IMG/VR virus record: IMGVR_UViG_3300017963_000003
Location: 32,001 to 96,000 of that record
Source of the DNA: a virus
Length of the DNA stretch: 64,000 bases
Direction: 5' to 3' (one strand)
Below the pieces are notes generated by a model. The model made no database searches. It worked only from the letters and a program-made list of their open reading frames with translations, and was not told where the DNA came from. The position numbers and the translations under genes were made by a program. Position 1 is the stretch's first letter; every line of letters begins with the position of its first letter. Shown piece by piece: positions 7,111-16,988 of this stretch.

Positions 7111-9906
7111 TCAGCCCGGAGCGAGCCCCAGCGCAGCAAGCTGGTTAGCCTGCTCCCCTTGGCGCTTCTTGGTTCGCTCTCGATGTTGCTTTCCGGTTGC
7201 CCATTCACGCGCCTCGCGACCAGCAGCGGTATCAGCTCCTGGCCTCCAGAAGAGGGCACGCTCGTAGTTCCGTCCTCCAGAAGGAATGGAACCTAAGAGA
7301 CCCCCACCCCTCATGAACGGCGGAAGTCCCTCGCCCTCGTTGGCGTGAATGAACCCCGTCGCACCCTTCGTCCAGTCCTGTGTCCCGGAATCACCTCTCA
7401 AGATGCTGCGCGCGAAATCAATCGTAGCCTGCGAGGGGCGACGGCGCGTAGCGTACTGGCGGTTGTACCGCTTATTGTTGTTCTGCTTCCCCCACCCCTT
7501 ACCGGAAGTGGCCTTGTTCTTGAGAGCACCCCCACCCCTGCCCTTGGCACGATTGATCAGAGTGTGCGCGATACCTACCAGCTCCTTCTTGCGCGCAGGA
7601 CTGTACCCTCCAGCTTCGCTCTGAAGGACACGAGCCAGCGCCTCCACGTCGTCCCCGGTGTACTTGCCCTCACTGGCAAGAGCCATACTGCTGAACTCTC
7701 CCTCCAGCTCCGCTTCCTCGGAAGCGAAGGAAAGCCCACAACGAGGGCAGTTGCCGCCGATCTCGAATGAAATGTTGCCCTGGGTGTCTACACCGCCCAC
7801 TTCGAGAGTGACTCCGCCTCCAGCCCACGGGCCGTCCCATTCCGACTGCGCAGCCTGAGGGTCCTTCTTTACCGAAGCAGGTGCCTTCGCCATCTGCTTG
7901 GGAGCCATCGAAGATTGACCCGACTGGAGCGATGCCACGGGGATCTGCACCACTTGAGACGGAGCGAACGCGTTGCCCGCACCCCGACCCTTGGTACCCG
8001 GCATCGATCTGAGTCGAGAAGACGCAGGATCGAAGTTCCAGGCCTCCTGGAGGGTCTTCATCGAGGTCCCCAGGACGTCAGAACCCATGCGCTTCATCGC
8101 CTTTGTCATCTGGGACAGACCCCGGTTCATCTTGCGCTTGTGCTCTTCCGTGTTCCCGAACAAGGCGTTGATGTCAGCCGCCAACCGATTATTGTCCTGC
8201 TGATCGCCGCTGATGCCGTTCACAATGAACTCAGGGAGGGCCTTGAAGAACGCAATCAGCCACGACACGGCCTGGATGACCATGCCCATGATACCCTGCC
8301 CTACCTTGGCCAGTCCCTTCATCCACGAGTTCATCGTGCGCTCGAATTTGCTGCGCTTGGTGGCCTCCACGCCAAACGACTTGGACAGGATCTCGGAATT
8401 CTGCTTGGCCGCCGTGGCTGCCTCTACGGTCTTCCCCTCCTTCATCTTGGAACCGATCTCGGCTATCAGACGGGCACCCTCAAACCCGAGACCCATCTGC
8501 TTCTCCATGTAGAACCGCGCGGTCTCCTCGTCCCCTCCAGTGGCCTCCATGGCGATGTCGTAGACGGCCTCGACGATTCGCGTGACTTCTCCACTGTTGT
8601 TGCCCTCGGCAACACGGCGGAATGCGTCCATCATCTTCTGCCGTGCTTCGAGTCCTCGACCGTAGCCGAGCCGTTCCCCGAGAATGATCTTCCAGGAATC
8701 CGACATCTTGGCGATCCCAGACGCCATCTGCTGTATCCCCATCGCGGCCTGCTTTCCCGCGAACTGCTTGGGAACACCCATCTTGGAGAACTGCTCCGTA
8801 ACGTGCGAGTAGATGTCCACGACGTTATCGATGTCGTACCCCATCTTGGCCAGCTCCTTGCCAGCATCCTCCACGTTCTTCACGTACTGCATCGCACCGA
8901 TACCGGAATCCCGACCCACCATGTACATCCGGGTCAAGGACTCCCTGGCCTCGTCAGTGGTCTTGCCGTAGTCGGCCATCAGGCCCACCATCCGCTTAGC
9001 GCTCTCCCCACCTCCCAGCTCGAACATCTTGTCCAGAGCCAGAGTCACCGTGACGGCACTGCTGTGGACGCCCTTGAGCCGCGTATCGACAGTCCGCGTC
9101 ATCTGATCGACGCTGACACCGCCGTCGACAAAAGCCTGGGCAACCGACTGAATCTGTTCCCGGTTGATCCCCATGTACTGCTGCAACGACTCCTGGATCG
9201 AGGACAGGTGACGAGTTCCAGAACGTACAGCCCCCTTCACCCCGTCATCGTAGGCGGCGATGAGGATGTTCTTCATCTCCCCGGCCTGGGCACGAACCCT
9301 GTCGCGGTCCATGTAGCCGTGGATCATGATGCCGATACCACCCGCTGCAAGGGCCTTCCACTTCGGCACCTTGAGCTTCTGCATCATGCCGCCGATCTTA
9401 CCCTTCAGCGTCCTCCACTCTGACCGAACCACCTGCTTGGACTTGTTGGCCGCCCAAGCACGCGCACCGCTCTTCTTACGGCCCTTGCTGTCACGCCCCT
9501 TAGCGCCTCCTCCGCCGTCCTCGGCGTCCACCTGACCCGCAACAGCGTCTGCCTTGTCTACAAGCCCCCTTGCGCCCGCTGAGAGGCTCTCAAAGTCCTT
9601 CTCGGCGGCCTTGACCGTCTTCTCCAGCTCGTCGAAGGACTTACCCATGCTCCCCGCGAGCTTCTCGAACTTCTGAGAAACCCCCTGGACGTACTCCTGC
9701 CCCATACCGGTCAGCTTCGACCCCTCCTTGAGGGTGGGATCGTTCTCCAGATCCGAGAACACGGTCTTGAAGCTGTCGCGTAGAGACGCACCGAGCGCAT
9801 CGATCATCTCAGTGTTGCGCTGAGATACCTCACTGATGGCGTCACCGAGTTCGGTGAACTTGAACCGAGCAGCATCGAGATGCTGTATGTCAACGATATC
9901 GGTCAT
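7111..9906 (-). CDS. Tape measure protein paralog C with C-terminal SleB-like (Hydrolase_2) cell-wall hydrolase
   Basis: 931 aa, Ala/Gly/Met-rich helical body homologous to the two upstream paralogs; C-terminal DVEALARVLQSEAGG...VGIAHTLINR...ATGF matches the SleB ARxxxxEA...AVxxVxxNR motif. Confidence 0.75.
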   Translation of the reverse strand: MTDIVDIQHLDAARFKFTELGDAISEVSQRNTEMIDALGASLRDSFKTVFSDLENDPTLKEGSKLTGMGQEYVQGVSQKFEKLAGSMGKSFDELEKTVKAAEKDFESLSAGARGLVDKADAVAGQVDAEDGGGGAKGRDSKGRKKSGARAWAANKSKQVVRSEWRTLKGKIGGMMQKLKVPKWKALAAGGIGIMIHGYMDRDRVRAQAGEMKNILIAAYDDGVKGAVRSGTRHLSSIQESLQQYMGINREQIQSVAQAFVDGGVSVDQMTRTVDTRLKGVHSSAVTVTLALDKMFELGGGESAKRMVGLMADYGKTTDEARESLTRMYMVGRDSGIGAMQYVKNVEDAGKELAKMGYDIDNVVDIYSHVTEQFSKMGVPKQFAGKQAAMGIQQMASGIAKMSDSWKIILGERLGYGRGLEARQKMMDAFRRVAEGNNSGEVTRIVEAVYDIAMEATGGDEETARFYMEKQMGLGFEGARLIAEIGSKMKEGKTVEAATAAKQNSEILSKSFGVEATKRSKFERTMNSWMKGLAKVGQGIMGMVIQAVSWLIAFFKALPEFIVNGISGDQQDNNRLAADINALFGNTEEHKRKMNRGLSQMTKAMKRMGSDVLGTSMKTLQEAWNFDPASSRLRSMPGTKGRGAGNAFAPSQVVQIPVASLQSGQSSMAPKQMAKAPASVKKDPQAAQSEWDGPWAGGGVTLEVGGVDTQGNISFEIGGNCPRCGLSFASEEAELEGEFSSMALASEGKYTGDDVEALARVLQSEAGGYSPARKKELVGIAHTLINRAKGRGGGALKNKATSGKGWGKQNNNKRYNRQYATRRRPSQATIDFARSILRGDSGTQDWTKGATGFIHANEGEGLPPFMRGGGLLGSIPSGGRNYERALFWRPGADTAAGREAREWATGKQHRERTKKRQGEQANQLAALGLAPG

Positions 9907-12212
9907 CGTGCGCCCATCCGGGTAGAGCTATTCTGAGAAACCCGTTTCCTCGATTCTATCAGAGAAGATGTCGTTCCTTTTTTACCCACAGCGGGTTTTG
10001 AAATACCGTCAGAAGACTCACTCACGTTGGAGTTCATCGTGCGGTCCTTGGCACGAGCCTCCCTGCGAACCTTCTGCGGAGAGCGGCGTCTAGACTTTCT
10101 ACCAGCCTGCGGTTTGTCTGCGGAGGAGACTGCCTTCTGGACCTTCCCTCGACGTTCCGTCTGATCAGGAACCGCCGCGTCCAGCTCCACGTCGGCGTCC
10201 GTATCGACATCGAGATCGTAGTCTCCGCTAGACAGAATATCCGGGTCTTCGTCGATCAGGTCCTCCCGAACCCTTTCCTCGTCAACGTCCATACCCCCAC
10301 CGTACCCAGGAGCCATCGGAGCCTCTACCGGGGCTTGATCACGCAAAACATCCAAGAGAGGGCCAAACGTCTCCCGAAACTCACCACCCAAGGCCTGTCC
10401 GGCGATCTCGAAACCACCGATGAGCTTCTCCCAGCTACCGGCCATCGTGTTGAAGACCTTGTTCTGCTGAGCGTAGATGCGGTGATACACCTCTTGACGC
10501 TCAGAAACAGGAGTCAAGAGAATCTGAGCCTCCCCTTTGAGGCCGACCATCAACACCGAGACCAGGTCCACCAGGATCGCCAGGATCGCCTCACCGATAC
10601 GCGCCATCCCGCGAATCAGCTCTCTCCGAGTACGGTGCAAAGAGGAGACACGCTCGCTCTCCGTCTGGAAAGCCTTGCGAAGCTCTTTTCGCTCTTTCTC
10701 GGACAGGTCCTCCAGCTTGCCACCCTCAGCTAGCTTCTCCCCCGCGTCCCAAACCAACTGAGCAGTCCGGTTCTTGACGTTCAGAAGCTTCGAAGTGGCG
10801 TAGATCCCCCGACTCCGCGACGTAGAGGTCTTGGACTTCAGAGTACGTACGGTGGAACGGATGAGATTCTCCAAAAACTGGTCATCATCCCCCTTAGAGA
10901 TGCGGCGCAGACCGTCGTCGAACCTCAGCATCAACGAAACCGCATCCGCCTCCTGGTCCTGGTACATGTCCCTAGCAAGAACGATCTTGAGCTGATCGTC
11001 CAGCTTCGTAAACGACGTCATCAGATCGGCTACAACACCTTCGGCCTGCTTCCCCGCGTACCTCTCGGACAACCCATGCGCGGAGTAGAAATCGATCACC
11101 TTCCCCGCGAAAACAGCAGCCGTCTCCGCCTGTACGCCCATTCGCGAAAGAGGATCAGCAGCAGACATAACGATGCGCGTGAAGTTACGAACACCGATAG
11201 CGCTCCGAGCACCGGCAGCGGTCAACCGAGTGTAGAACCCCGCAGCGTCATCCAACTTCATCCCGTAGTCGCGAACGAGACTCGTGATGTCCCCCATGGC
11301 CTCCGCCGTGGCGAAGTTGAAGTGCTTCCCTATACCCAGCGCCAGGGTGACGACGTTCTTCCCCACCTTCCCCAACCCATCATCAAAGGTCTTCAACATG
11401 TCAGAAGCGCGGAAGCCATTGTCGACCATCAACTTCACCGCGCCCTGGGTTTCTTTCCGACCCACACCCCATTGCCACTGGGCACGCTCACCCCAGTTGG
11501 CAAACCACCGAGTGGCTCTCCGGGAACTCGCTGAGAACAGCGAGTCCACACTACCCTCGAAGAGGTTGGCCATCTCGGACATCTCAGCACGCCGACGGTC
11601 ACGCTCTGTGTACCCGAGAACCATCGCCCCGATGAGACCACCGACAAAACCCGTAGCCACTCCCCCTGGAATCTTGCGCAGAACGCTCTGTAGCTGTTTC
11701 TTGACCGAAGCTGCCTCTTTGCCAACAAACTTCGCAAGACGTGATTGCCGCTCTTCGGCCTCATCAGTGGCGCTGTCTGCCTCCTGGGCCACCTTCTCGG
11801 TCGACTTCAGGGCCTCCTCGGCATCGTTCTTAGCCCCTGCCGTATCCGGGACCGGCGGAAGAGGTTGCGTCTTCTCGGGGGCTTCCCCTCGGGGGTCCTC
11901 GTTACCGAGAAAGTTTTCGATCTTCAACGACCGGAGCTTGTCGAGAGCGCTGCTCATGGTGCGCTCCTGTCGGTCGTACGCGCTGAGGCTGCTCTCAATC
12001 TTGGACACCGAGGCATCCGTCATGGGAAGAATCAACGGAGGAGGATCACCCACTGAACCGGAACCCAACGTGATGTCGTCCGATGCACGCATAACGCGCG
12101 CTGAAAGCATCTGAATCGTGTTCCCCAGCTCAGTGTATGCTCGCGTGGTACCCTCTAGCTGAGAACTCAGCCAAGGGAGATCAACTACGAGCCGTGGAAT
12201 ACCGTCGGTCAT
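9903..12212 (-). CDS. Tape measure protein paralog B
   Basis: 769 aa; shares GxxGAMVxGY.ERDR and TESERVSSLH motifs with its neighbours; ATGA overlaps at both ends. Confidence 0.65.
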   Translation of the reverse strand: MTDGIPRLVVDLPWLSSQLEGTTRAYTELGNTIQMLSARVMRASDDITLGSGSVGDPPPLILPMTDASVSKIESSLSAYDRQERTMSSALDKLRSLKIENFLGNEDPRGEAPEKTQPLPPVPDTAGAKNDAEEALKSTEKVAQEADSATDEAEERQSRLAKFVGKEAASVKKQLQSVLRKIPGGVATGFVGGLIGAMVLGYTERDRRRAEMSEMANLFEGSVDSLFSASSRRATRWFANWGERAQWQWGVGRKETQGAVKLMVDNGFRASDMLKTFDDGLGKVGKNVVTLALGIGKHFNFATAEAMGDITSLVRDYGMKLDDAAGFYTRLTAAGARSAIGVRNFTRIVMSAADPLSRMGVQAETAAVFAGKVIDFYSAHGLSERYAGKQAEGVVADLMTSFTKLDDQLKIVLARDMYQDQEADAVSLMLRFDDGLRRISKGDDDQFLENLIRSTVRTLKSKTSTSRSRGIYATSKLLNVKNRTAQLVWDAGEKLAEGGKLEDLSEKERKELRKAFQTESERVSSLHRTRRELIRGMARIGEAILAILVDLVSVLMVGLKGEAQILLTPVSERQEVYHRIYAQQNKVFNTMAGSWEKLIGGFEIAGQALGGEFRETFGPLLDVLRDQAPVEAPMAPGYGGGMDVDEERVREDLIDEDPDILSSGDYDLDVDTDADVELDAAVPDQTERRGKVQKAVSSADKPQAGRKSRRRSPQKVRREARAKDRTMNSNVSESSDGISKPAVGKKGTTSSLIESRKRVSQNSSTRMGAR

Positions 12213-14581
12213 TCGCTGTTCGGCCTCTTGAGGATATTCTTCTGGGCTTCCTGGTTGGCAGTCCCGGCGTCACCGGCACTGAGCACCGTCTTGCCTTTGC
12301 TGGCACCCACCTGCTGGTCCACCTGGGAGCGCTTCTTCTGTCTCTTGTAAGCACGGCGTATACGAGCCAACTCTTTCTTCTGCAAATGCCCCTCTACGGC
12401 GCTCGCCCTCTCTTCCAGTGCCTGAGTGCGCCTACTCCACTTCTGGAAGTCTTCGCTCGGTGCCTCGCCTTCTTCAGGAGCGTGCATGAGCTTCATCATC
12501 TCCGACGCCCACGCAGCGTTCTTCAAGAAGTCGACCGTCATCTGGTCCTTGACCTGACGACGAAAGTCCTCGTCCCCCGCCAGGTCACTAAAAACACTCC
12601 CTAGCTCCTTGGCAGCCGCATCCGCATCCTCCAGAGAGGTAATAGGCCTCATGCCGCCGCCCGTAGGAACCTTGTAGTTCAGTGCGTCCAAAAGGGGCTT
12701 GAAGTCCCGTCCGAACTCCTTACCCAAGATGCCGGGAACCATACCCGCGCCCTTCATGATCTGGTCCACACCGGTACCCATGTGCGCGTTCAGCGTGTCG
12801 AGTTGATCACTGATGCGACTCAGCTCGGTCTGCACCTGACCGGGGCTACCTGAAACCGCAGCGGAAACGATATCCGGGAGCGCACGGATACCTGTCACGA
12901 TAACCCCTAGCAGCCCCACGAGAACCTTGATCAAGCCGCGACCGATCTCACCTATCGCACGGTAGAGACGACGCTGCGTCTTGTGCAACGATGATACCCG
13001 CTGACTCTCCGTCATGAAGGCACGACGCAGGTGCTTCGTCTCATCCTTCGACAGCTCGGACAAATCGTTGGTCCGCGCGAGCTTCTCCCCCAGATCGTAC
13101 AACGTCGCCGCCGTACGGTTATCCATACCCTGGTACTCCATGACACGGATGGATTGAGCACGACTACGACCACCGCGACTGGACCACTGAGTGAAAAGCA
13201 CCAACGCCTTCTGCATGAAGTCGTCGCCCCCACCCTCAGCAACACGAAGAAAACCGTCCTCCCACTTCTGGAGGGCGTCCAGCGCGTTCAGCTCAGGGAA
13301 CATCTGCTGCGCCAGAACAGCCTTCATGCTCGGGTTGAGGTTCGCGAGACCTGCGGACATGCCACCGATGACCTGCGAGGCCTGATTGCCCGCGTATCGG
13401 GGATCGAGCCCCATGTCCTCGTAGTGCTTCCGGATGGTCTCCATGACGGACGCAACGTTGGACACGTCAACGCCGTACTGCTGCATCGCGGAGGAGCCTG
13501 AGATGACAGAATCGACGAACCTACCGATACCCATCGCGCTACGCTGCCCCGCGAAAGCCAGCTTGACGTACTTGTCCGTAGCGGTATCGAGAGAATCACC
13601 AAGCTCAGTAGTGATCTTGATGATGTTGCTCATGGAGGTACCGGTCTTCTGGTTGAAGTGCTTGTCCACGGCGATGGACGCAACAGTCACGTTCTTGCCA
13701 ACAAGACCCAAGTCTTTGTTGTACGTGGTCATGAAGTCCTTCGACCGGTACCCAGCGTCAACCATGCTCTTCAGTACAGCCTGCGTTTCCTCCTTGGCCA
13801 CCCCGTAGAACCACTGCGCGGTCTCTTGGAACCCAGAGAAGAACCGAGTAGCTCGCTTCGATGCTTTCGAAGAAAGCGCCTCTCCGGTAGCTTCGAAGAC
13901 ATTCAGAATCTCTCCCGATTGCCACCGAAGACGGTCCCTCTCCTGATACCCCATGACCATCGCAGCCAGGAGACCCCCAGCGATGCCCCCGGCAGTCATA
14001 ACGCCGCCAGGAACATGACTGAGCACGCTCTTGACCTGACCCTTGGCGGCGTCCAGCTCAGACTTCAAGTACCGCTTAGCGCGGTTGATAACCATCACCG
14101 AGGCCTTATCGGCCTCCTGAATCTTCTTGATCGACTCCAAAGCCGCATGCTTGACCTCGTCGGAGGACATGCTGGCCAGGCGAACGCTCTCCTTGACGAT
14201 TTCCGCCTTGGCCTCCGCTGCGCTGAGCTGAGGAGGTGTGGGGTCCTTGGTAGCGGCCCCCATCTTGACCCCCGACAGGCGAGTCATGTCGTTAGCGATC
14301 TTCTCGCTATGACGTGACATCTCTTCGAGGAGGTTGGACGTAGAGCCTACCCCGGACTCCATGATCTGGACCGACCGCTCCATCTGCGGAGTGATCGAAG
14401 AGAGACTGACATTGACCGACGCCGCCTGCTCCTGGAGAGAGACCAGCTCTTCGTCCGTACGGGAAATGAGACCCTGAAGAGACCTGCCGAAATCCGTGTA
14501 GGTCCTCCGAACGTCGTCGATCTGAGCCTGGAACTTATCCAGGTCGAATCGAAGCAGGTACTCTTCAGTGGTCGCCATCAA
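12209..14581 (-). CDS. Tape measure protein paralog A
   Basis: 790 aa helical protein immediately after the tail chaperone pair, the canonical TMP position; N-terminal LRFDLDKFQAQI typical of TMPs. Confidence 0.7.
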   Translation of the reverse strand: MMATTEEYLLRFDLDKFQAQIDDVRRTYTDFGRSLQGLISRTDEELVSLQEQAASVNVSLSSITPQMERSVQIMESGVGSTSNLLEEMSRHSEKIANDMTRLSGVKMGAATKDPTPPQLSAAEAKAEIVKESVRLASMSSDEVKHAALESIKKIQEADKASVMVINRAKRYLKSELDAAKGQVKSVLSHVPGGVMTAGGIAGGLLAAMVMGYQERDRLRWQSGEILNVFEATGEALSSKASKRATRFFSGFQETAQWFYGVAKEETQAVLKSMVDAGYRSKDFMTTYNKDLGLVGKNVTVASIAVDKHFNQKTGTSMSNIIKITTELGDSLDTATDKYVKLAFAGQRSAMGIGRFVDSVISGSSAMQQYGVDVSNVASVMETIRKHYEDMGLDPRYAGNQASQVIGGMSAGLANLNPSMKAVLAQQMFPELNALDALQKWEDGFLRVAEGGGDDFMQKALVLFTQWSSRGGRSRAQSIRVMEYQGMDNRTAATLYDLGEKLARTNDLSELSKDETKHLRRAFMTESQRVSSLHKTQRRLYRAIGEIGRGLIKVLVGLLGVIVTGIRALPDIVSAAVSGSPGQVQTELSRISDQLDTLNAHMGTGVDQIMKGAGMVPGILGKEFGRDFKPLLDALNYKVPTGGGMRPITSLEDADAAAKELGSVFSDLAGDEDFRRQVKDQMTVDFLKNAAWASEMMKLMHAPEEGEAPSEDFQKWSRRTQALEERASAVEGHLQKKELARIRRAYKRQKKRSQVDQQVGASKGKTVLSAGDAGTANQEAQKNILKRPNSE

Positions 14582-15411
14582 TCACTCTCCACGATCACAG
14601 TCGGCCTGTCGAGGCTCGGTTCTGCCTCCACGGACTTGTCCGATGTGACTTGGACCGACACCAAATCAACGTGCTCCACAATGTGCTGCTGAGAATGCTC
14701 GCGCTTCATGTCATGCCGGGCTTGACCGATAGTGCGCGCAGCGACATCCGACAGGGAGTTTTCCTCGATGTCGTCTTTGTTGAGAACCAGAGACTCCAGA
14801 AGGGCCTGGTTGTCCCGACCACCCCAGGACATCATCCGTTGCAGCTCCTCAGGGGTGCTGTCGCACTCGACGTCGCCGTCGTCCTCCATGAAGGCTTCCA
14901 GCTCGTCGGGGGTCATCTCCACGACACCGGTATCGACGGGGCGACCGTCGTCACCAACCTGGCCCGATGCAGCGAGCTGACCCGCCACCTCCTGCTGGGT
15001 ATGGAGCTGTTCGGTACGGTCTTTGATCATCGAGAGGACGTCATCACGCCCAGTCATCACAGAAAGTGGCATGATCTCGTCAGGAGTAGGCATCCGAAGC
15101 AACCCCGTCTCCTCGTCCTCCACCGGACACAGGTTGAGGCCCAACATGCTCACCACCTGGTCTTTCACTATGTCCGCCATCAGCTCGATGTCCTTGTACC
15201 GATCCAAGTCCTCCTTGTTCATCGCCTCAAGCTCAAACACCCACTGGGTATCGTTCATCCCCTTGATACGGGGGTCCCCGATGGGGATCTGTCGCTTCGT
15301 CAAGACCTTGGCCTTGATCCGAAGGCGAGAAGCTATTCGTCGCCAGACGGGGAAGACTCGGTCCCAGTGGGCTTCTCGCCCTCTTCCGAACCCTCCCCGG
15401 AGGATTTTTTT
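14578..15411 (-). CDS. Tail assembly chaperone T segment, C-terminal part of a predicted -1 frameshift G-T fusion
   Basis: The 14578..15303 ORF has only a TTG start; its frame is open upstream to the A AAA AAA heptamer at 15411-15405 in the -1 frame of the preceding gene. Confidence 0.75.
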   Translation of the reverse strand, partial: KKILRGGFGRGREAHWDRVFPVWRRIASRLRIKAKVLTKRQIPIGDPRIKGMNDTQWVFELEAMNKEDLDRYKDIELMADIVKDQVVSMLGLNLCPVEDEETGLLRMPTPDEIMPLSVMTGRDDVLSMIKDRTEQLHTQQEVAGQLAASGQVGDDGRPVDTGVVEMTPDELEAFMEDDGDVECDSTPEELQRMMSWGGRDNQALLESLVLNKDDIEENSLSDVAARTIGQARHDMKREHSQQHIVEHVDLVSVQVTSDKSVEAEPSLDRPTVIVESD

Positions 15412-15869
15412 GCTGCGTCCTGGGCGTCCTCCCTACGCTGTTCGAGAGACTCCCAGAAACCCCACATCTCCTCCAGACGCTCCGGAGGACGCTCCGCCAG
15501 GTACTGCATCAGGTACTCGGCCGCGAAGTACTTCTGATTGTAACGCCCCCGACCATCGACGAGCTGCACGATCTGACGTCCCTCCTCGGTGCTCTCCCAC
15601 TCCTCGCGGAAGAACTCGAAGACAGGAATTCCGTTGATGGCGCGAATGCCGATGGACAGTGTGGGCAACCTCCAGGAAGAAACCGTCGAGATGCGCGACC
15701 CGGTGTTGATGAACGAGTTACGCCAGTTCGACTCTTCCTCCGTCAGCAGACGTATCGTCCACTCACGGCCCATCCACAGGAAAGTATCCTCGATGGTCTC
15801 GCCATCGAGTTCCCGAGCAAGGTCCAGCAACATCTTTTTGGGACTTTGATTGTCGTTTGAAGGCAACAC
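15333..15869 (-). CDS. Tail assembly chaperone G, about 178 aa
   Basis: Start reassigned to GTG 15869 behind a GGAGGAGG SD; the track start at 16031 overlaps the tube gene. Acidic small protein between tube and TMP. Confidence 0.75.
   Translation of the reverse strand: MLPSNDNQSPKKMLLDLARELDGETIEDTFLWMGREWTIRLLTEEESNWRNSFINTGSRISTVSSWRLPTLSIGIRAINGIPVFEFFREEWESTEEGRQIVQLVDGRGRYNQKYFAAEYLMQYLAERPPERLEEMWGFWESLEQRREDAQDAAKKSSGEGSEEGEKPTGTESSPSGDE
15405..15411 (-). other. Programmed -1 ribosomal frameshift slippery site (A AAA AAA)
   Basis: Seven-T run on the + strand; zero frame reads GCA AAA AAA TCC; the -1 frame reads through KILRGGFGRGREAHWDRVFPVWRRIASRLRIKAKVLTKRQ into the downstream ORF. 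Confidence 0.8.
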
Positions 15870-15928: not shown

Positions 15929-16534
15929 CTACAACAGAGGTCTCACCTTGGTGTAGACCATCGTTGCGTTGACTGAGACGATACGGTCTCCTTGCGCTTG
16001 CATGTTCCGACCCAGACTGGTGAACCAGCAACCCGAGTACCAGAGCTTCTCCACGCTCACTTCCATCCCCTGAGGGACGGCCCCGGTGTCGATACCATCG
16101 AGGTCGTTCTCGGTCCCGATACCCAGTGCACCCCCGACCTTAGTGTTGCCGAGAGTGTTGAGCATGCTGTCGCTGACCGACTGAAGCCACGGGGTGAACG
16201 GGGAGTCGTCCTTCTTCCCGTACCTGACCCATTTCTCCTCAACGTCGAACGGGTTGTGCTGGTCGGTGAGCATGTAGAGTGCCTTGTCGGTCCCCCAGAT
16301 CTCCTCCATCTTCTTCGTGAAGAGATCGTACCTCGCCACCTGAACGGTCTGGGAAGACGAGATGCCGGCAACGTGCTCGATGGGCGCCCCGAGACCGACA
16401 GCGTTGATCTCGTACTTCGGCTTGACGTCCCTCGCCTGGGAAGGAGCCCACGTCTGGATATGTCCGATGGTCTTCCCGCCCGCTCTGATAGAGATCGCAT
16501 GGCTAGTGCGTACTTGCGTGACGGGTACTGGCAT
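15929..16534 (-). CDS. Tail tube protein paralog 2, with an extra loop
   Basis: 201 aa; aligns end to end with 16542..16988 (TSHAISI.AGG..IG.IQTWAP, TVQVARYDLF, GCWF..GRNMQAQGDRIV.VNAT) and is 53 aa longer. Confidence 0.85.
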   Translation of the reverse strand: MPVPVTQVRTSHAISIRAGGKTIGHIQTWAPSQARDVKPKYEINAVGLGAPIEHVAGISSSQTVQVARYDLFTKKMEEIWGTDKALYMLTDQHNPFDVEEKWVRYGKKDDSPFTPWLQSVSDSMLNTLGNTKVGGALGIGTENDLDGIDTGAVPQGMEVSVEKLWYSGCWFTSLGRNMQAQGDRIVSVNATMVYTKVRPLL

Positions 16535-16541
16535 GTGAGGC

Positions 16542-16988
16542 CTAGAGCGGTCGGATCTTGACGTAGTTGAGGGTCGCGTTGACCATCACGATACGGTCGC
16601 CCTGAGCTTGCATGTTGCGACCGATCTGCGAGAACCAGCAACCCTCGTAGTGGTAGAACTCGGTAGCGCCGTCCGGGTTTCTCCACTTCTCGCGCAGCTC
16701 CAAGGGATTGAGCTGGTCGGACAGCATCCAGAGAGCCTTCGCCGTACCCCAGACCTCCTCCATCTTGGAAGCAAAGAGGTCGTAACGCGCCACCTGGACG
16801 GTCAGGCCGGTGATGTTCCCCGGAACGTTCTCCGTCACCTCACCACTCGTCTCCGACCGCAACTCGTACGTTGGCGTTATGGTACGAGACTGGTTGGGCG
16901 CCCACGTCTGGATCTGCCCAATGGGCACCCCTCCTGCCAGGATCGATATTGCATGGCTGGTGCGGATGTTTGTCTGCGGAACTGGCAT
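16542..16988 (-). CDS. Major tail tube protein
   Basis: 148 aa directly downstream of sheath; ends Y.GCWF......Q...IV..NATL.Y as in T4 gp19-like tubes. Confidence 0.85.
   Translation of the reverse strand: MPVPQTNIRTSHAISILAGGVPIGQIQTWAPNQSRTITPTYELRSETSGEVTENVPGNITGLTVQVARYDLFASKMEEVWGTAKALWMLSDQLNPLELREKWRNPDGATEFYHYEGCWFSQIGRNMQAQGDRIVMVNATLNYVKIRPL

Follow-up and report, generated by a model that had tools for sequence, protein, structure and literature searches.

The tail gene module of an uncultured, 192-kb, contractile-tailed phage was found to carry three consecutive genes, here called A, B and C, in the place of a tape measure protein (TMP) gene. They lie in a 64,000-nucleotide window (bases 32001–96000 of the 192,260-bp IMG/VR virus record IMGVR_UViG_3300017963_000003, which has direct terminal repeats), and their open reading frames (ORFs), with products of 790, 769 and 931 amino acids (aa), are indeed situated where an earlier reading, made from the letters alone (the sequence-only reading), had placed them (Table 1). 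TMPs are usually homo-oligomers of a single gene product that set the length of the tail and open the way for the DNA. Judged from alignments and trees, A, B and C are anciently diverged, long co-retained members of one putative TMP family, and our favoured reading, to which we assign a probability of roughly 0.45, is that they co-assemble side by side as a hetero-oligomer in one tail tube; we infer their presence in the virion, their parallel arrangement and their stoichiometry.

The paralogy of the three proteins, proposed earlier from two shared anchor motifs, was borne out by pairwise alignment, in which A and B share 33% identity over 650 residues (E-value of 1e-102), A and C share 23% (E-value of 1e-43), and B and C share 25% (E-value of 2e-43). 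This similarity is far above chance and co-linear across about 600–650 residues, and the two anchor motifs turned out to be the best-conserved columns of the A/B/C alignment. Moreover, all three share the conserved motif YT[DE][FL]G at the N-terminus, the lengths of their cores are matched, and the anchors are positioned within about 15–45 residues of one another across the paralogs. While the cores are conserved, orthologs of A and B show hypervariability over the C-terminal 130–200 residues, and C alone of the three paralogs has a conserved C-terminal region.

Scanning for hydrophobicity (Kyte-Doolittle, 19-residue window) revealed that a transmembrane-like segment closely follows anchor 2 in A, B and C (with peaks of 1.8–2.2), and that in A and B a Gly-rich hydrophobic segment closely precedes anchor 1, the equivalent stretch of C remaining below threshold. 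The earlier claim of a hydrophobic segment after each anchor therefore stands for anchor 2 in all three proteins, but not for anchor 1, which the segment precedes in A and B. Likewise, not all of the gene junctions are ATGA overlaps as had been claimed: those at the starts of B and C are, but the first junction reads TTGATG, in which the stop codon TGA (14580–14578) shares one base with ATG 14578, and a 4-nt overlap (TTGA) exists there only if A starts at TTG 14581. Since ATG 14578 has a well-placed Shine-Dalgarno sequence (GGAGAG, 6 nt upstream), A is probably 789 aa long. All genes of the region are directed along the minus strand, and the proposal that the three genes are coupled within one operon is supported.

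The homology among A, B and C spans their entire core, so a finding for one paralog holds for all three, and no division into one TMP and two members of unrelated families was observed. Direct matches to the TMP profiles of Pfam and PHROG were weak and were obtained for B only, i.e., to TMP_3, PhageMin_Tail and phrog_1272 (E-values of 0.005–0.009). A search with a 16-member profile of the family retrieved 391 representative proteins (i.e., protein clusters at 50% identity) at an E-value of at most 1e-3 among 1.84 billion, and PhageMin_Tail and TMP_3 were the only recurring non-enzymatic families with an evident functional link among 58 distant members. Baculo_PEP_C and ATG17_like, with three matches each among the same 58 members, were discarded as candidates because they look like coiled-coil noise. 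Since the profile matches are all sub-threshold (cf. below), A, B and C are best described as a predicted distant TMP-like clade outside the curated Pfam models, rather than as members of one of these.

An AlphaFold2 model of A (based on a 58-sequence alignment) was all-helical, as the sequence-only reading had anticipated, with a mean predicted local distance difference test (pLDDT) score of 73.6 and values above 90 for residues 200–630. Searching the BFVD with this model via Foldseek yielded 92 matches with an E-value of at most 1e-3 (best 1e-8), and almost all of those with a name were tape measure or minor tail proteins; their TM-scores were merely 0.2–0.3, as expected for floppy helical models. 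No match at an E-value of at most 1e-3 was obtained with the same model in the PDB. When the family profile was compared with PDB sequences, designed coiled coils dominated the matches and the sole TMP chain was 9d93 ("Tapemeasure protein", E-value of 0.012). In a single-sequence search, a 58-member profile matched residues 1185–1392 of gp183 from phage G (E-value of 7e-10). A tblastn search with A through 50,697 phage records yielded no match, and a cultured member was thus not found.

The location of the three genes in the TMP slot behind a chaperone pair was confirmed both by gene order (in the direction of transcription: sheath, tube, second tube, slip-site chaperone pair, A-B-C, and the baseplate genes p250 and p836) and by the A_AAA_AAA slip site. 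A frameshift that yields a G and a GT product is a hallmark of the region upstream of TMP genes, and the two ORFs upstream of A look like such a G/GT-type programmed frameshift, the –1 frame from the slippery heptamer being open into the second of them. The same order of genes occurs in phage G, where gp178 to gp183 comprise a sheath protein, virion proteins, a frameshifted chaperone (a joined coding sequence) and a TMP.

The number of TMP-like genes differs among relatives. The closest record in the phage collection, Rctr197k (KX853510; an uncultured 197-kb myovirus), has one 669-aa gene (Rctr197k_071) where the window has three, while the remaining tail module is co-linear gene for gene. Its product is homologous to A and C, but differs from the window's set in being single-copy and devoid of an enzyme domain, and the gap separating the chaperone from the p250 homolog has space for just one gene. 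Four lineages have two copies (L011/L012, L013, L021 and L022/L023), laid out as a gene of ~773–799 aa followed by an enzyme-bearing gene of 907–967 aa. Triplicated loci in a fixed A-B-C order were found in at least eight lineages, seven of which are complete (the window, L005-7, L008/9, L010, L019, L020 and L024), whereas in the eighth (L027) the contig stops inside B. Loss of A or B was seen in none of these eight three-copy lineages, each having kept one A and one B.

A maximum-likelihood tree with Rctr197k as root (built in a 30-row version and in a version with more distant rows) grouped the last genes (i.e., C together with the last gene of two-copy phages) into one clade (support of 99) and the first genes into another (99), with A (100) and B (99) each monophyletic and C likewise forming a supported clade. 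The 30-row tree placed A and B as sisters (97) beside the first genes of the two-copy phages, and the node joining these became a polytomy once more distant rows were added. Among the three paralogs, branches are longest for B, and mean ortholog identity amounts to 37% for A, 30% for B and 40% for C. Paralogs resemble each other no more closely within a genome than between genomes (e.g., 25.3% vs. 24.3% for A and B), which excludes recent duplication as well as gene conversion and indicates that the duplications are older than the radiation of the group. On these trees and identities, the simplest history would be that a single TMP gene was duplicated in tandem twice in succession.

Fused copies were not encountered: among the best 150 of the 391 representatives the maximum length was 1045 aa and nearly all matched the profile in a single stretch, and a search of longer proteins revealed no fused forms of at least 1384 aa, although this second result is weak evidence. 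Two further arrangements were observed in deeper lineages, outside the main clades of the tree. On the 187.7-kb contig L030 (5095–10070), a 967-aa copy bearing an M23 domain comes first and a 689-aa copy second, with 23% mutual identity. On the short contig L029 (2–6636), the order is p250 homolog, TMP-like protein of 710 aa, a 150-aa gene, TMP-like protein of 842 aa, and p836 homolog, which shows that rearrangement of the array, with copies placed behind the p250 gene, is possible. Both pairs may stem from independent duplications, a call that their long branches make unsafe.

Regarding the ends of the proteins, the earlier claim that only C has an enzyme was supported indirectly, via its orthologs. 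C itself has no Pfam match, and a phmmer search of its last 239 residues against the PDB gave chance matches only. Nevertheless, its last ~240 residues are 37–55% identical to the tails of orthologs (37% for that of P0006, E-value of 6e-37), and the orthologs P0006, P0016 and P0019 pass the gathering score of Hydrolase_2 (PF07486; 29–36 bits vs. a cut-off of 27). C also contains a Glu in the stretch LQSEAGG, which may correspond to the catalytic Glu of SleB. No domain could be recognised in the C-terminal tails of A and B from the window.

Across the long C-type proteins the wall hydrolases vary, including M15 (Peptidase_M15_2/3), CHAP, Glucosaminidase, SLT, Hydrolase_2 and M23 domains, and exchange of the last paralog's enzyme has recurred within the family. 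A GNCPRCG stretch precedes the enzyme, and its CPRCG columns are at least 90% conserved across C-type proteins with differing enzymes (Hydrolase_2, M15 and M23). In C this provides a single CxxC per chain (residues 720–723, window 7738–7749), with which a metal site could arise only between chains, and such a site might report the number of C chains that come together.

The side-by-side arrangement is favoured because each copy is architecturally complete (with the YT[DE][FL]G motif, the hydrophobic segments and a length-matched core), because the 669-aa protein of the one-copy phage Rctr197k is no longer than each paralog, because no fused genes were found, and because myophage tails of solved structure hold either a TMP trimer or a six-fold bundle. 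Specifically, the TMP of phi92 (gp134, 656 aa, in a tail of 24 rings) is present as a trimer (PMC13450770) and that of A-1(L) (gp13) as a six-fold bundle ending in tripods (PMC10966104), with the C-terminus docking in the hub in both cases (PMC13450770, PMC10966104). These proteins (656–689 aa) resemble the ~600–650-residue cores of A, B and C in size and in being helical, and reside in the tail lumen, from where they are ejected on contraction (PMC13450770, PMC10966104). Unlike what is proposed here, they assemble from a single gene product into homo-oligomers and dock in the hub by a conserved C-terminal peptide, whereas A and B have no conserved C-terminus. A hexamer would allow six chains to be divided equally among one, two or three genes.

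Under this side-by-side reading, A, B and C would be co-translated from a single operon, downstream of the G/GT chaperone pair, and be loaded into the lumen of one tail tube in a 1:1:1 or 2:2:2 ratio, with their ~600–650-residue cores running in register and the hydrolase of C sitting at the tail tip. Contraction would then eject all three, and their two hydrophobic segments would help form a route through the membrane. Extended to the clade as a whole, the tail core would be an obligate hetero-oligomer of two or three different TMP chains, one with a wall-cutting enzyme and the others with different ejected ends, that arose stepwise from one to two to three genes and possibly more than once; this broader proposal is put forward more tentatively still. 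Most of the remaining probability is shared by the arrangements considered below, and a small part is left to others.

A number of points weigh against co-assembly. The physical association of A and B with C, as well as the presence of A and B in the virion, is inferred. With regard to the TMP identity itself, B reached only 16–17 bits with the curated profiles PhageMin_Tail (PF10145) and TMP_3 (PF20155), below their cut-offs of 33–41, and among the 58 distant members PhageMin_Tail matched weakly in five and TMP_3 in three, all under the curated cut-offs. Since hub docking in phi92 and A-1(L) uses the C-terminus, the hypervariability of the extreme C-termini of A and B implies that these two may not anchor like a canonical TMP. 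In addition, bundling the chains at 1:1:1 or 2:2:2 is at odds with the three-fold symmetry of the hub, and the matched length of the cores could merely reflect a conserved domain. Core lengths vary by just about 10–30 residues among 11 genomes, which is too little to assess whether they change in step, so length co-variation has no power here.

The best-surviving alternative, though in our view an unlikely one, holds that C, the slowest-evolving and enzyme-tipped copy, is the sole length-determining TMP, while A and B derive from TMPs but travel in the lumen as passengers. On ejection they would enter the envelope or the cytoplasm of the host and act there as effectors or channel formers, with their variable C-terminal tails as payload. 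In its favour are the hypervariable ends on conserved cores, the long branches of B, and the hydrophobic segments kept in all three. A precedent comes from Sle1, a TMP-derived lumen protein of a phage-tail-like particle of Streptomyces lividans, i.e., TMP-related cargo with an exchangeable C-terminal functional module (PMC13277306), although it stems from a bacterial contractile injection system rather than a phage and is likened to A, B and C by description, not by sequence. Yet A and B retain the full-length core and the N-terminal motif of C, and the tails of the window's copies reveal no domain that could be recognised as a payload. Moreover, passengers are expected to vary or be lost, while exactly one A and one B persist in each three-copy lineage.

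More doubtful is an arrangement in which homotrimers of A, B and C are stacked end to end in gene order, with C at the tip, so that tail length is additive (about 100 nm for one gene, 200 nm for two and 300–370 nm for three). This would amount to a split version of a giant TMP such as gp183 of phage G (annotated as "tail protein with lysin activity; tapemeasure", 2893 aa), which the summed 2490 aa of A, B and C approach and which, like the three-gene array, carries a lysin. Homotrimers would suit a hub with three-fold symmetry, the copy with the enzyme invariably comes last in the main clade, as in single TMPs with C-terminal lysins, and only C has a conserved C-terminal region. However, phage G uses one giant gene, whereas the window has three separate genes of about 770–930 aa that are each a complete copy of the core, without specialisation for the head end, the middle or the tip. 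Fusion would be a simple route to a longer ruler, but two-core or three-core fusions are absent from the best 150 representatives, and in L030 the enzyme-bearing copy comes first. End-to-end TMPs are not known in any phage.

Finally, that the paralogs are alternative or redundant tape measures, with one of them per virion as a homo-oligomer and tail subpopulations that differ in penetration properties, is very improbable: the differing C-terminal ends and the enzyme present only on C lend it weak support, but the tight ATGA coupling implies co-synthesis rather than choice, redundant copies should often be lost whereas none of the eight three-copy lineages lost any at 30–40% ortholog identity, and the length-matched cores mean that tail lengths would not differ, for which reason tails of different lengths, an alternative raised by the sequence-only reading, were also rejected as the main explanation.

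Among the genes surrounding the array, the 148-aa tube candidate has an ortholog in L013 with a weak match to Phi812_tail_tube, and the 148-aa and 201-aa tube-like types cross-match in relatives. The tandem tube-like pair (15929–16988) also occurs in Rctr197k, L011, L013 and L027, and is therefore independent of the TMP copy number. The G-like chaperone ORF shares 57% identity with a 169-aa gene in the same slot of L027, a slot that corresponds to gp181 of phage G, and the T-like ORF shares 43% identity with a 220-aa gene of L027 and has a weak match within the gp182 region of phage G. Downstream of the array, p250 is 37% identical to Rctr197k_072, the product of the gene directly 3′ of the single TMP gene of Rctr197k. 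In Rctr197k, a putative homing endonuclease gene (Rctr197k_064; L001:15047–15934) was noted directly upstream of the sheath gene.

Table 1. Positions of the putative TMP array, its segments and the neighbouring tail genes in the window.
Feature	Position	Strand	Remarks
Tail sheath, 833 aa	17012–19513	–	40% identity to Rctr197k_065; 26% to annotated tail sheath gp178 of Bacillus phage G
Tail tube candidate, 148 aa	16542–16988	–	phrog_985 virion structural protein, E-value 2.7e-7
Second tube-like paralog, 201 aa	15929–16534	–	phrog_985, E-value 4.8e-6
Chaperone G-like ORF, 166–178 aa	15333–15869	–	start GTG 15869 or ATG 15833
A_AAA_AAA –1 slippery heptamer, perfect	15407–15413	–	direct sequence reading; followed by CCTCCGGGGAGG
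Chaperone T-like extension ORF, 241 aa	14578–15303	–	reached by –1 frame; sole start codon TTG
Putative tape measure paralog A	12209–14581	–	789 aa from ATG 14578; 790 aa from TTG 14581
Gly-rich hydrophobic segment before anchor 1	A 13952–14008 (residues 192–210); B 11616–11672	–	
Hydrophobic transmembrane-like segment after anchor 2	A 12878–12934 (residues 550–568); B 10542–10598; C 8236–8292	–	
Putative tape measure paralog B, 769 aa	9903–12212	–	ATGA overlap with A
Putative tape measure paralog C, 931 aa	7111–9906	–	ATGA overlap with B
C-terminal module of C	7237–7839	–	GNCPRCG knuckle (about 7738–7749) and SleB/Hydrolase_2-like domain
Downstream virion protein p250, 250 aa	6350–7102	–	phrog_1011, E-value 0.001
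Downstream large tail/baseplate protein p836, 836 aa	3843–6353	–	co-linear with Rctr197k_073
Third downstream gene product, 505 aa			after p250 and p836

More than one candidate TMP per phage has been described before, since "Two potential tape measure proteins", both helical and with transmembrane segments, are in print for Staphylococcus jumbo phages (bioRxiv 10.1101/2020.12.14.422802; PMC10638138). In MarsHill, Madawaska, Machias and DC4, genes for a "tape measure protein" and a "tail lysin" (about 1960–1990 aa) are adjacent, as A, B and C are in the window. These phages nevertheless form an unrelated group with two copies of about 2000 aa, both of which are annotated with enzymes in DC4, and they have no published copy-number series or phylogeny. 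Searches of the literature brought up no heteromeric TMP and no array of three TMP genes. What is new here is the family itself, the series of one, two and three copies with a clean phylogeny, and the demonstrated long co-retention of the copies.

These data indicate that a large and wholly uncultured group of ~160–210-kb myoviruses (391 clusters) has kept two or three diverged copies of a TMP-like gene for a very long time, while a relative retains the one-gene state, and such long co-retention points to a division of labour in the tail lumen. Any annotation pipeline built around one TMP per phage will give wrong labels to two of the three genes. If the chains do co-assemble, current models of how TMPs are symmetrically arranged, dock in the hub and form a channel across the envelope would need revising, and a ruler would be shown to gain functions at unchanged length; with an obligate hetero-oligomer, a tailed phage would for the first time provide an asymmetric "ruler" encoded by several genes. 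If the chains are instead stacked end to end, the array would represent a new route to a longer tail.

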